A stretch of 64,000 nt of DNA from IMG/VR virus record IMGVR_UViG_3300033463_000003; one strand, given 5' to 3'. The notes beneath the pieces were generated by a model, which saw nothing but the letters and a program-made list of their open reading frames with translations, was not told the origin of the DNA and made no database searches. Shown in pieces: positions 22,461 to 63,979 of the stretch; the stretch's first letter is position 1, and each line of letters opens with the position of its first letter. Made by a program: the position numbers and the translations under genes. The DNA comes from a virus (lineage: Duplodnaviria > Heunggongvirae > Uroviricota > Caudoviricetes).

Positions 22461-23363
22461 ATGGATAATTCAGGTTATACTGGCTGAAGAAAATGGAAGC
22501 CCAGCTCTGATGAATGGGTAGAACTATATACATCAAATAAAATTCCATTTCAACTCAAAGAAAATGAATATTTAATTGCAGAGTCAAGTGATGGTGTCTG
22601 TACATTCTACTGTAATGAAAATGGCAGTCTAAGAAAGTTTACAGGTGGGTCAATTAAAACAATTAAAGATATGACCCCTGTTTTCTTAGAAGAACAAAAA
22701 GAAACAGATAAAAAACCAGCTCCTAAAAAGTATTCAAAAGGCAAAAATGTAGTAATAACACCAAAAAATGTTGAACAGGTATGTGCCTTTGATTTAATGA
22801 AAGATCCAACAAAAACAATTAAGCTTTTGACTGGAACTTGAGGCACAGGTAAAACTTTAATCTTAGTATCTGCAGCATTAGAAGCATTAAAGCAAGGCAG
22901 ATTTGATAGAATTGTCTGGATTAGAAATAATGTTGATGTTAAGGATACAAAAGATTTAGGTGCGCTTCCTGGTGATGTGATTGATAAATTACTTCCATTC
23001 TTGGGGCCATTTATCGACCATGCTGGTGAAGCAAGCGTAAGAACTATGTTAAATAAAGGAACACTTGTTGTTGAACCACTTCAATCCTTGCGAGGTAGAA
23101 ATTTCAATAATACATTAATTATGTGTTCTGAAGCCGAAAACTTAACAAAAGAGCATATACAGCTTATTATTGCTAGAGCTGCGGAAGGCTCAGAGGTTTG
23201 GTTTGATGCAGATAATAGACAACGTGATAAAGCAACCTTTGAAAAATCAAAAGGTATTGAAACATTAATAGAAAGATTTGCTGGACAAAAGCTATTTGGG
23301 TATGTTCATTTAGTTAAAAGTGAACGTTCTGAAACAGCTGCTATGGCAGATTTACTTAATTAA
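22461..23363 (+). CDS. phoH: PhoH-family ATPase (code 4; TGA at 22485 and 22839, the latter in the P-loop)
   Basis: TGT[TGA]GTGKT P-loop, LGALPG..KL.P, LRGRNF, EAENLT. Confidence 0.88.
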
Positions 23364-51380: not shown

Positions 51381-51977
51381 ATGATTAAGTTAAGTGCTTG
51401 GGATAGATTATATTGTAATACTATGGACTGAGCTTTAAGAAGAATGGCGCCCAATGATTTAGAATTTTATCATGATACTATTCAAGATTGGACTGATGCT
51501 TTATTAGCTTTTCAAAAAGTTAAAGAAGAATTGTTTAAAACTTATAGCATTACCTATAAGTCTGGCAATAAGTTTAAAAGAAGCTGTATTAAAGGTTTGG
51601 AATTAACTGCAGACCAATTATTTGAATTATTTCATAAACATTTAGAGCAATATACAAATAAAACTGTTAGATATTTTATCTTTCATTGGTGGAATGATCT
51701 AAGATATTATATTGAAGGTGCACAACCAACATTAGACTGTCCTTGGGAACTTTATAAAGAAGCTACTAAAGAAGAAATTGAACAAGCAAATAAAAATTTT
51801 ATTGGACATACATTCAATAGTGGTAGAATATTAGAGTATCGTGGTATCAGATTTCCTATTGATGATGAATGGAATGATGCTTGGATTGTTGCTAAAGATG
51901 GCCATGTTAGAAGCTTCCAGTTAGTCTGGGATTGGTGATACCCAATAGATGAATTCCTGGACTTATATAATCTTTAA
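51381..51977 (+). CDS. Hypothetical protein (code 4; TGA at 51429 and 51936)
   Basis: ATG directly follows the upstream stop; read-through joins both ends; ends TAA. Confidence 0.65.
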
Positions 51978-54338: not shown

Positions 54339-54734
54339 ATGAAAACTAAAATTAAAAGATATTGCGAATGATGTGGAAATGAAATTAAAGATCGACATGC
54401 TAAAAAATTTTGTTGTAGAGCCTGTTATCTTGAAGCACATAAATTAGAACACTATAAAAAATATTTAGAAGATAATTCTATTGCATGGGGCATTCAAAAC
54501 ATGCAGCGATATAAAAAATATTTTTTAGAAGAACAAAATCATAAGTGTGCTATTTGTGGCTGCGATGATACTTGACAAGGTAAACAACTAGTATTTATAT
54601 TAGATCATATTGATGGCAATGCCGATAATAATAACCGAGATAATTTAAGGCTAATTTGCCCAAATTGTGACTCGCAATTAGATACTTATAAATCAAAAAA
54701 TAAAAATTCAGCTAGAAAAAAATATCGTAAATAA
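54339..54734 (+). CDS. HNH endonuclease (code 4; TGA at 54369 and 54573), absent from ORF track
   Basis: CAICG...T[TGA]QGKQL...LDHIDG..NN...NLRL.CPNC.SQ..TY..KN; Trp is typical at this position in the family. Confidence 0.88.
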
Positions 54735-54748
54735 TGTATATTATATTT

Positions 54749-55031
54749 AGGAGAGTGGTGTAACGGTAGCACAGCGGTCTTCTGTTAATTGGAGCACTTA
54801 TTAAGGGATTAGTAAGTGAATGGTGTAAATTCAATGAACCCTGTAAAATGGTAACGTTGAGCGAAGCCTCGAAAGAGGAACGTGCAGAGACTATAATCAC
54901 CCATCTAGACCAGATGAAAGCATAGTCCAGACCACAAACTGTTAGGCAATGAAAATTGTAGTGGTAAGCAAAACCGTAAAGAGGAGCTTCCAAAACTCCG
55001 GGCGCGGGTTCGAATCCTGTCTCTCCTGCCA
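54749..55031 (+). tRNA. tRNA with anticodon UCA (UGA-decoding, Trp-type), split by a group I intron, with 26-nt extra arm
   Basis: Exons 54749-54781 + 54969-55031 rejoin to GCGGT-CT-TCA-AA-ACCGT; acceptor AGGAGAG/CTCTCCT, G73, CCA; A1-U72, G2-C71, G3-C70 as in bacterial tRNA-Trp. Confidence 0.85.
54782..54968 (+). mobile_element. Group I intron (187 nt, resembling the tRNA-Leu(UAA) IC3 type), no ORF
   Basis: P/Q/R/S-like elements AAATTCAATGAA, GTTGAGCGAAG, GTGCAGAGACTA, GCATAGTCC; P7 GACTA/TAGTC; U.G wobble at 5' splice site; terminal G. Confidence 0.88.
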
Positions 55032-55097
55032 TAAGTTTATATTAATTTAAAAAATATAAGCTAAATTAAATGAGTTTGAGTAAATCAAACTTACATA

Positions 55098-55166
55098 GTG
55101 AAAAGCACACCCGTAGAAATGCGGGGTCGCAAAACTATAGGGTCTTATTAAAGATAGCCAGTTGCC
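55098..55166 (+). promoter_or_regulatory. GEMM-I (c-di-GMP-I family) riboswitch aptamer, A20 variant
   Basis: G-CACAC-CCGTA-GAAA-TGCGG-GGTCGC-AAAACTATAGGGTCT...AGATAGCCAGTTGCC fits P2 (GAAA tetraloop), P3 and junction pattern. Confidence 0.85.
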
Positions 55167-55252
55167 TCAATCAAAGTATTTTGGTTGGGGCTTTATTTTT
55201 AATAAGATAGCCAGCTGCCTCAATCGTTCTATACGGTTGGGCATTTTATTTT
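55164..55252 (+). terminator. Two tandem intrinsic terminators, each preceded by a copy of the aptamer 3' end
   Basis: GCCTCAATC..GGTTGGGGC-TTTATTTTT, then GATAGCCAGCTGCCTCAATC..GGTTGGGC-ATTTTATTTT. Confidence 0.75.
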
Positions 55253-55273: not shown

Positions 55274-55975
55274 TTGGATAGAGATATTGCATTAAAGTAT
55301 GTCAGACGAAAAAAACGCAATAAAAGAGTCGCAATAATTTCAGGCATTAGCACAATAATTCTTACAATATTCATAATTATTGCCTTCAGTCTGATTCATG
55401 TTGATAGATTTACTATCACAACAAGTGAAGAGCCTGAGCTGTGCTTAACACTTAATCAAAAAGAGTTTACAACTAAACTTACAGCTCCTCCACTTCTTAA
55501 AGCAACAGATACTCAATATACTTACGTAATTGAAAATCTGGATGAAACTGAAGGGAGTAAAAACACAGATTATTATTTCGCTTATTCCTTCTATTTAGGT
55601 GGCCAGGGTAAATCAGAGAGTATAAACTATAACTTAGCTTTATCGCTTGATAAATACTCAAATAACATTGAAGAAGCAATAAGAGTGATGATAATAAGGA
55701 ATGGTATAAAAGAAGTTTATGCTAAACCAGACCAAAATGGAGAAGCTAAACCAATCTATTACGGTGAAACACATGAAAGTGCACCAGAACAAATTGGAAT
55801 AACAACACCATTTAGATCAAATAAAAACATTATAGTTGAAGCGTACGAAATCAAACCTGGCGACTTTGATAAATACACAATTGTAATGTGGATCGACGGT
55901 TGGGAATCCGTCAACGAAATGAAGGGCGGGGTGTTCTCAGCCAATATAAAATTCTCAACTCATTCAATTAATTAA
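55274..55975 (+). CDS. Membrane-anchored extracellular protein
   Basis: Basic N-terminus plus one TM helix; TTG start with GGAGG RBS. Confidence 0.65.
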   Translation: MDRDIALKYVRRKKRNKRVAIISGISTIILTIFIIIAFSLIHVDRFTITTSEEPELCLTLNQKEFTTKLTAPPLLKATDTQYTYVIENLDETEGSKNTDYYFAYSFYLGGQGKSESINYNLALSLDKYSNNIEEAIRVMIIRNGIKEVYAKPDQNGEAKPIYYGETHESAPEQIGITTPFRSNKNIIVEAYEIKPGDFDKYTIVMWIDGWESVNEMKGGVFSANIKFSTHSIN

Positions 55976-60866: not shown

Positions 60867-60941
60867 GGGCCGATAGTTTAATTGGGAAAACACCCGCCCT
60901 GCAAGCGGGAGTTACGGGTTCAATTCCCGCCGTGTCCACCA
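60867..60941 (+). tRNA. tRNA-Ala(TGC), imperfect acceptor stem
   Basis: CCCGC-CC-TGC-AA-GCGGG, CCA. Confidence 0.75.
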
Positions 60942-63358: not shown

Positions 63359-63362
63359 AAAT

Positions 63363-63452
63363 GGTCTATTAGCTCAGTCTGGTAGAGCGGCCGACCAAAG
63401 TGTCGGTGACAAACAGCGCGCGAGTGCATTGGTTCAAATCCAATATAGACCA
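63363..63452 (+). tRNA. Atypical tRNA-like RNA (6-nt anticodon loop, 20-nt extra region, no CCA)
   Basis: Perfect acceptor GGTCTAT/ATAGACC, D- and T-arms; GCCGAC-CAAAGT-GTCGGT arm plus GCGC-GCGA-GTGC hairpin. Confidence 0.6.
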
Positions 63453-63460
63453 TCGTATAT

Positions 63461-63697: not shown

Positions 63698-63771
63698 AGG
63701 AGTTTGGTATATTGGCCGTGCCTTGGTCTCCAAAACCAATGAAGTGAGTTCGATTCTTACAACTCCTGCCA
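63698..63771 (+). tRNA. tRNA-Trp(CCA)
   Basis: TTGGT-CT-CCA-AA-ACCAA, G73, CCA. Confidence 0.88.
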
Positions 63772-63902: not shown

Positions 63903-63979
63903 TGCGGGGAAGTGTAACGGTTTGCATCTGAGGCTCATAACCTCAGGGTAGTGAGGTTCAACTCCCACCCCCGCGACCA
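63903..63979 (+). tRNA. tRNA-Met(CAT)
   Basis: TGAGG-CT-CAT-AA-CCTCA, CCA. Confidence 0.85.

Follow-up and report, generated by a model that had tools for sequence, protein, structure and literature searches.

A split phage tRNA(UCA) with a second, CCA-presenting anticodon-like arm and a family of phage tRNAs in which this arm appears to be conserved by selection

The window analysed here, a 64,000-nucleotide stretch of DNA from a Caudoviricetes record of IMG/VR, encodes a split tRNA(UCA) that carries, between its UCA anticodon arm and its T arm, a second anticodon-like hairpin presenting CCA, the ordinary anticodon of tRNA-Trp. Comparison of homologous sequences indicates that this second hairpin is kept by selection across many phage tRNA(UCA) bodies that look unrelated, whether or not they contain an intron. 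The best reading of the window gene is that it encodes the phage's UGA-decoding (opal suppressor) tRNA-Trp, and we favour, with somewhat better than even confidence, the proposal that the CCA arm is a relocated identity element for tryptophanyl-tRNA synthetase (TrpRS), which would let the host TrpRS charge the UGA-reading tRNA. The window is AT-rich (32% G+C). Its contents include a large tRNA array and a module for phage DNA replication (RecA, clamp loader, PolA-type polymerase and PD-(D/E)XK nuclease), and its protein set is also found on contigs of 225-273 kb.

The gene, at 54749-55031, was detected with ARAGORN -i, which allows introns, and is missed by ARAGORN in its default mode. Exon 1 and exon 2 (54969-55031) would be spliced to a tRNA of 96 nt, with a 187-nt intron that ARAGORN -i places after U34. 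The product has five helices, with an acceptor/T branch of the 7/5 type, an acceptor AGGAGAG/CUCUCCU with A1-U72, a D stem of 4 bp and a UCA arm GCGGU-CUUCAAA-ACCGU; in the precursor all helices except the UCA arm are already complete before splicing. Positions 54969-55003 read CAAA-ACCGT-AAAGA-GGAGC-TTCCAAA-ACTCC-GGGC, in exact agreement with the sequence-only reading, which had noted that the 26-nt 'variable region' folds into an anticodon-like stem-loop (4 bp plus C.A) showing CCA. A hairpin of 4 bp could by itself be due to chance; its conservation in homologues implies that the second arm is not.

Table. Features of the split tRNA(UCA) and of associated genes, in window coordinates
Feature	Position	Strand	Basis or remark
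PhoH-like gene, in-frame TGA at 22839 in Walker A (G-T-[TGA]-G-T-G-K-T)	22488..23363	+	Pfam PhoH, PDB 3b85
HNH endonuclease-like gene preceding the tRNA; TGA codons in frame at 54369 and 54573	54339..54734	+	code 4 translation
Exon 1	54749..54781	+	ARAGORN -i
Exon 1, acceptor 5' strand	54749-54755	+	ARAGORN -i
Exon 1, U8 and G9	54756-54757	+	ARAGORN -i
Exon 1, D arm GUGU-AACGGUA-GCAC	54758-54772	+	ARAGORN -i
Exon 1, A26	54773	+	ARAGORN -i
Exon 1, UCA-arm 5' half GCGGU-CUU	54774-54781	+	ARAGORN -i
Probable group I intron of 187 nt, separating U34 from C35 in the loop of the UCA arm	54782..54968	+	Rfam RF00028, ARAGORN
UCA-arm 3' half CAAA + ACCGU; splicing would complete the anticodon UCA	54969..54977	+	sequence, ARAGORN
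Linker 1 AAAGA, between both arms	54978..54982	+	alignment with homologues
Second, anticodon-like arm, stem GGAGC/ACUCC (4 bp + C.A)	54983..54999	+	sequence, covariation
Second-arm 7-nt loop UUCCAAA	54988-54994	+	CCA at 54990-54992
Connector 2 GGGC, 4 nt, in the place of the class I variable loop	55000..55003	+	alignment
T arm GCGGG-UUCGAAU-CCUGU	55004-55020	+	ARAGORN
Acceptor 3' strand	55021-55027	+	ARAGORN
Discriminator G73	55028	+	ARAGORN
Encoded CCA	55029-55031	+	ARAGORN
Ordinary phage tRNA-Trp(CCA), 74 nt, class I	63698..63771	+	ARAGORN, sequence

Within the gene, positions 54771-54961 match the group I intron family RF00028 in Rfam at 42.9 bits (E 1.9e-9), under the gathering score of 50. 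The intron boundaries were set from ARAGORN, from reading of the splice sites and from intron-less homologues. At the 5' splice site the upstream U could pair with a G of the internal guide GGAG (U.G in P1), the intron ends in G, and the CAA that starts exon 2 can pair with the UUG directly 5' of the internal guide; in the intron-less homologue L085, exon 1 equals that of the window with one mismatch and is fused straight to CAAAACCGT. When a phage collection was searched by blastn with the window feature, similarity was confined to the intron, which is 69% identical over 158 nt to an intron in L001. That 205-nt group I intron splits a tRNA-Leu(UAA) (L001:527-817; LR756501, a 735-kb uncultured phage). 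The stretch 55094-55252 holds a c-di-GMP-I riboswitch aptamer (RF01051, 59 bits), 63 nt downstream of the window tRNA(UCA), with terminator-like hairpins after it at 55164-55191 and 55219-55241, the second of which repeats the 3' end of the aptamer; an operon of unannotated proteins begins at 55274, after these hairpins. Elsewhere in the window, a 93-nt tRNA-like gene (63362-63454; Rfam tRNA, 48 bits) has an extra region of roughly 20 nt and is given a 2-nt 'anticodon' in a 6-nt loop, CAAAGU, by ARAGORN, and two stretches within the tRNA array, 60867-60938 and 63903-63976, match Rfam tRNA at about 41 bits and are unreported by ARAGORN.

All 283 nt of the gene are identical in an ENA contig (L002, 225,736 bp) and a JGI contig (L003), and this agreement of three assemblies rules out the assembly chimera that had been raised as a possible origin. 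Exact-sequence scans of IMG/VR for the window tRNA gave no match, and IMG/VR relatives of its neighbour proteins were not found; relatives were traced through clamp-loader homologues. In L006/L007 and L010/L011, whose clamp loaders are about 67% identical, an intron-split UCA tRNA is located at other genomic positions, whereas in L009 and L013-L016 (four relatives in one count) a UCA tRNA was not found within 10 kb of the clamp loader. Both L006 and L010 retain the UCA arm, the intron and the second arm, which answers in the affirmative, for these two, whether related phages keep both arms. Their second-arm stems, GGAGG/CUUCC and ACAGU/GCUGU, differ by compensatory changes around the loop GUCCAAA.

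A first scan of IMG/VR with a degenerate pattern (CAAAAC, gap, TCCAAA, gap, T loop) found 87 stretches, mainly on contigs of 100-230 kb, corresponding to 70 distinct sequences, with two false positives among them. G73 is present in all 70 distinct pattern matches and A1-U72 or G1.U72 in most, the most frequent acceptor being AGGGG/CCCCU. Exon 1 is joined directly, with no intron, in 44 of the 68 true members; an intron of 183-210 nt is found in 8, and in the remaining 16 the upstream end is the same intron 3' sequence and the intron is longer. The intron is therefore a feature of about one-third of the family, invariably within the UCA arm, and since the second arm occurs both with and without it, the arm is independent of the intron. 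These counts refute the suggestion that the second arm is a recombination scar from intron transfer. They also leave a switch between the arms before and after splicing without support as a mechanism for the whole family, since splicing does not arise in most members. Second arms are mostly of 5 bp with linkers of 4-6 nt and 4 nt, those of the window included (its linker 1, AAAGA, is the most frequent in the family), and 10/70 members have a 7-bp arm with linkers of 0-2 nt. The family consensus of connector 2, RGGU, resembles a class I variable loop; its length is set by the search pattern and its sequence preference is free of it.

Matches in genome collections numbered 23, about half of which were left out as not dual-arm, being tRNA-Trp 3' halves (attachment-site-like) or other RNAs. 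Some of the matches are in Bacilli and other Bacillota, and assemblies of Bacteroides, Coriobacteriia and Treponema also yield members. The lone tRNA-Trp(CCA) 3' halves in L055, L065, L196, L201 and L205, which extend from the anticodon arm to the CCA end with no 5' half, look like attachment-site duplicates of integrated elements, and two such halves share one Desulfosporosinus scaffold. Dual-arm viral contigs also contain strong Rfam matches to OLE RNA (109 bits, L048:5822-6158), tmRNA (73 bits, L048:987-1411) and ROOL RNA (252 bits, L060:1356-1973).

Covariation was analysed in 73 distinct sequences, comprising the IMG/VR members, the relatives and the genome hits, which were anchored on the loop only, with complementarity unused. 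They contain 48 different 5-bp stems, in which pairs 2-5 are formed in 93-100% of sequences. Paired cells make up 92.6% of the ungapped alignment (A2), compared with 55.4% after shuffling (0 of 500 shuffles reach the observed value) and 28-46% in slid registers, and the second-arm stem shows 122 double changes against 36 expected. Given 52 full sequences, RNAalifold finds both the UCA and the CCA helix, along with those of the acceptor and the T arm. Stems are compensated and the UCCA loop is invariant, both among the relatives and across dozens of further phage tRNAs, and the comparison supports the 'functional design' branch of the sequence-only reading.

Conservation of the loop in the first scan is partly built in by the pattern, and only a second scan of IMG/VR, which asked solely for a UCA loop followed, after 8-38 free bases, by a T loop, is free of this bias. 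It returned at least 118 stretches. At least 37 of these are dual-arm tRNAs known from the first scan (118 minus 81 new loci), at least 12 are dual-arm variants with UCCA in the hairpin loop (UUCCAAC, GUCCAUA, GGUCCAAG) and at least 36 have an ordinary variable loop of 2-6 nt; among the matches listed, 18-24 stretches are of the 8/5 Sec type, a single stretch is long-armed, 7/5 and G73 but lacks UCCA, and about 9 are other. Accordingly, among the matches listed, UCCA is present in the arm of about 49 of 50 long-armed 7/5 G73 UCA tRNA stretches, and in the arm of the 18-24 Sec-type stretches neither CCA nor UCCA occurs (0 of 18-24). The reversed order, with the CCA arm first and the UCA arm second, gave two identical matches only, both non-tRNA. 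In the fetched loci, all 27 tRNA-Trp(CCA) genes and both tRNA(CUA) genes are of ordinary length; the long arm is specific to UCA tRNAs.

The dual-arm molecule consists of two overlapping cloverleaves: deletion of the UCA arm and linker in silico leaves a sequence that ARAGORN calls tRNA-Trp(CCA) in 44/52 cases, and deletion of the CCA arm leaves one that it calls tRNA(UCA), likewise in 44/52. These calls would suit a two-state tRNA, in which all five helices form and either arm can stack under the D stem, the CCA state serving TrpRS (and perhaps UGG) and the UCA state decoding UGA, as would the finding that the CCA arm plus its 4-nt connector (RGGU) occupies the exact place of a class I anticodon arm plus variable loop. 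We nevertheless consider this model unlikely. The 10 members of 70 with a 7-bp arm and 0-2-nt linkers have a rigid class II look that leaves little slack for exchange, and the reversed arm order was never seen among tRNAs in the pattern scan. Moreover, a separate tRNA-Trp(CCA) is present in the window and in 15/73 fetched loci; in the window, at least, decoding of UGG needs no CCA arm because this ordinary tRNA is available, and a UGG-reading state would be superfluous. The idea that the CCA arm serves TrpRS is common to the two-state model and to the relocated identity element that we favour; they differ in their structural claim.

Given the two overlapping cloverleaves, the second arm may plausibly have arisen when an anticodon arm was duplicated or inserted within a tRNA-Trp gene, and it could then be a functionless, neutral relic of such a duplication or recombination, if not an assembly artefact. 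This is extremely improbable, however, as the sequence is identical in three assemblies, the arm occurs with and without the intron, and 48 different compensated stems surround an invariant UCCA. Without selection the loop should have drifted along with the stems, and at the level of sequence comparison a relic is refuted.

ARAGORN labels the window tRNA as tRNA-SeC, and the UCA anticodon, the long extra arm and G73 are the features that would be expected of a class II Ser- or Sec-like suppressor, in which SerRS would be recruited through the arm and G73, and UGA would be translated as Ser or Sec. Both forms of this idea, of which SerRS charging had been put forward in the sequence-only reading, were rejected, and we hold it to be very improbable. 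The branch is 7/5 and not 8/5, the D stem has 4 bp, and the arm itself is un-Ser-like, with its 7-nt loop and 4-5-nt linkers. The window tRNA fits a cloverleaf of the RF00005 type, with arms found by ARAGORN -i, and intron-less homologues score 56-62 bits against RF00005 with no match to the tRNA-Sec family RF01852. Against a tRNA-Ser-type suppressor in particular, TGA in relatives never aligns with serine, as detailed below. Genes of the 8/5 tRNA-Sec type do occur on IMG/VR viral contigs: the UCA tRNAs of L127 and L162 match RF01852 in Rfam, and together with about 20 loci within L104-L184 they score 53-75 bits. In practice, tRNA finders mislabel dual-arm tRNAs as tRNA-Sec and, when no intron option is used, overlook the intron-bearing ones.

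The identity elements of the window tRNA are largely those of tRNA-Trp. The acceptor identity set of bacterial tRNA-Trp, as defined for B. subtilis, comprises A1-U72, G2-C71, G3-C70, G4-C69 and G5-C68 (PMC9976931). The window acceptor shares A1-U72, G2-C71, G3-C70 and G5-C68 with B. subtilis tRNA-Trp, with A4-U69 replacing G4-C69, and the G73 of the bacterial set is present. The decoding arm departs from the C34-C35-A36 of tRNA-Trp in having U34-C35-A36, and CCA is found only in the second arm.

In-frame TGA is absent from most genes of the window, and only 6 of the 77 long plus-strand reading frames end in TGA, but three clear exceptions indicate that TGA is a sense codon here. In the PhoH-like gene, both the Pfam PhoH domain and the alignment to PDB 3b85 span the TGA at 22839, which on this sequence evidence is a client codon of the window tRNA(UCA). 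The HNH endonuclease-like gene, which has weak Pfam matches to HNH_3 and Endonuclease_7, both under cut-offs, contains two in-frame TGA codons, one of which sits in C-E-[TGA]-C-G. The reading frame at 51444-51977 aligns with its L006 homologue beyond the TGA at 51936 (WDW[TGA]YPIDEFL compared with WDWDFPIDNYI), and this nominally 'terminal' TGA is likely to be read through. Around 50 IMG/VR dual-arm tRNAs, the median gain in long-ORF coverage is +0.12 when TGA is treated as sense and +0.05 for TAG. A search with the terminase family PF03237 for in-frame TGA in late genes gave no match. Where coding-strand TGA codons of related loci could be aligned (n=35, the count being restricted to the coding strand of relatives), the residue opposite is W in 22, F in 7, Y in 2, A in 2, D in 1, E in 1 and S in none. 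This distribution points to tryptophan as the residue inserted. According to Seki et al., all 13 phage tRNA(UCA) that they analysed inserted Trp in E. coli extract (PMC12636597).

The mechanism that we favour for the second arm starts from the premise that the major identity elements used by bacterial TrpRS include G73 and the CCA anticodon. Decoding of UGA would have forced C34 to U in the anticodon, with loss of the TrpRS determinant, and a copy of the CCA loop (N-U-CCA-A-A, like the anticodon loop of tRNA-Trp(CCA)) would have been kept elsewhere on the molecule. Host TrpRS would then bind the suppressor and charge it efficiently via the CCA arm, leaving the UCA arm to read UGA on the ribosome. 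The CCA loop might meet the anticodon-binding domain of TrpRS as an extra arm to which the linkers of 4-5 nt give flexibility; alternatively, the CCA arm might stack under the D stem, displacing the UCA arm, to reach the enzyme. A restored TrpRS determinant is the simplest account that the sequences suggest for an invariant anticodon-loop copy confined to UCA-decoding Trp-type tRNAs.

The same conserved look-alike, with its U33-like base, CCA and A37-like base, could in principle be read by any partner that reads the anticodon loop of tRNA-Trp, and the hairpin might instead be directed at an enzyme that modifies anticodon loops, at the Trp T-box leader of a host or, as a decoy, at a host anticodon nuclease. 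In the T-box variant of this explanation, uncharged phage tRNA would turn on host trpS or trp genes; T-boxes are common in Bacilli and other Bacillota, where some of the genome matches are found. However, nothing indicates such partners, members are also associated with assemblies of Bacteroides, Coriobacteriia and Treponema, and the strict tie to the UCA anticodon is most simply explained by the lost C34 determinant of TrpRS. A partner other than TrpRS therefore seems quite unlikely.

Charging by the host enzyme is consistent with the gene content of the phages. A gene of the TrpRS/TyrRS family (PF00579) was found in 0/30 dual-arm phage contigs, including 0/20 of those at least 90% complete, and because these phages encode none, the host TrpRS would be the sole TrpRS available to them. 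By comparison, PF00579 is present in 2/12 contigs with a short-variable-loop tRNA(UCA), a contrast (0/30 versus 2/12) whose direction fits but which is not significant (hypergeometric p ~0.08). The other 10 of these 12 contigs combine a short-variable-loop tRNA(UCA) with the lack of a TrpRS gene, which implies that the handle is not always needed. Similarly, B. subtilis tRNA-Trp(UCA) functions with B. subtilis TrpRS with no extra arm, as cited in PMC2965240, so that U34 must be tolerated to some degree and the CCA arm may only raise the efficiency of charging. In the canonical L-shape, moreover, the variable arm is not directed at the anticodon-binding site, and the rigid 7-bp arms with 0-2-nt linkers of a minority of members are a geometrical difficulty for a handle.

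Codon reassignment breaks tRNA identity for synthetases that read the anticodon, and the family suggests a way around this, in which the old loop is kept as a handle and a new one is used for decoding. If true, this would explain how UGA=Trp is imposed on standard-code hosts by phages without a TrpRS, and would provide both a new class of non-canonical tRNA and a rule by which suppressor tRNAs for genetic-code expansion could be designed. We are evenly divided on the broader proposition that viruses which rewrite a codon shift the anticodon determinant of the synthetase to a second arm, so that charging and decoding use separate loops, maybe in two states, as a general and engineerable uncoupling.

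Phage suppressor tRNA(UCA), TGA recoding, variable arms as identity elements, anticodon mimics in mRNA and group I introns in tRNA genes are already known; no description of a Trp-type tRNA with a second CCA-loop arm was found in the part of the literature covered, which is incomplete. The class I tRNA-Trp(UCA) of code 4 organisms (Mycoplasma, mitochondria) reads UGA as Trp, and these organisms have their own TrpRS co-evolving with the tRNA. Such tRNAs and the short-loop phage tRNA(UCA) perform the same decoding job as the dual-arm tRNAs, but with an ordinary variable loop of 4-6 nt. The variable arms of class II tRNAs, for their part, have short loops and linkers. In class II tRNAs (Ser, Leu and bacterial Tyr) and in tRNA-Sec, the long variable arm is an identity element for the synthetase (PMC9976931, PMC7609411), and like the CCA arm it is an extra helix between the anticodon and T arms that is possibly read by a synthetase. 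Those arms are read by size and orientation, whereas the CCA arm has the dimensions of an anticodon arm (5 bp, 7-nt loop) and a sequence-specific loop that reproduces another anticodon, and the dual-arm body, 7/5 and Trp-like with 4-5-nt linkers, is unlike class II tRNAs and tRNA-Sec.

The suppressor tRNA(UCA) of phages recoded from TGA to Trp likewise combines a UCA anticodon with in-frame TGA, and some of these phages pair it with their own TrpRS and RF1 (10.1101/2021.08.26.457843; PMC12636597). The second CCA-loop arm is unmentioned in the accessible texts of Borges et al. and Seki et al., and the dual-arm contigs differ in lacking TrpRS. Group I introns in the anticodon loops of bacterial and phage tRNAs, such as tRNA-Leu(UAA), are likewise inserted next to position 34; here it is a suppressor tRNA that is interrupted, and in every case the UCA arm, not the CCA arm, holds the intron. 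A protein-binding hairpin in the variable arm is tolerated, with translation activity kept, in engineered aptamer-tagged tRNAs (PMC7590224), although these are synthetic, use allo-tRNA bodies and carry a hairpin that is not a copy of an anticodon. Finally, anticodon-arm mimics bound by their own synthetase are found in mRNA, as in the E. coli thrS operator and yeast AspRS mRNA (PMC9976931). These likewise recruit the cognate synthetase outside its normal tRNA, but they are regulatory mRNA sites, whereas the CCA-arm mimic is located on a functional tRNA and would serve its charging.
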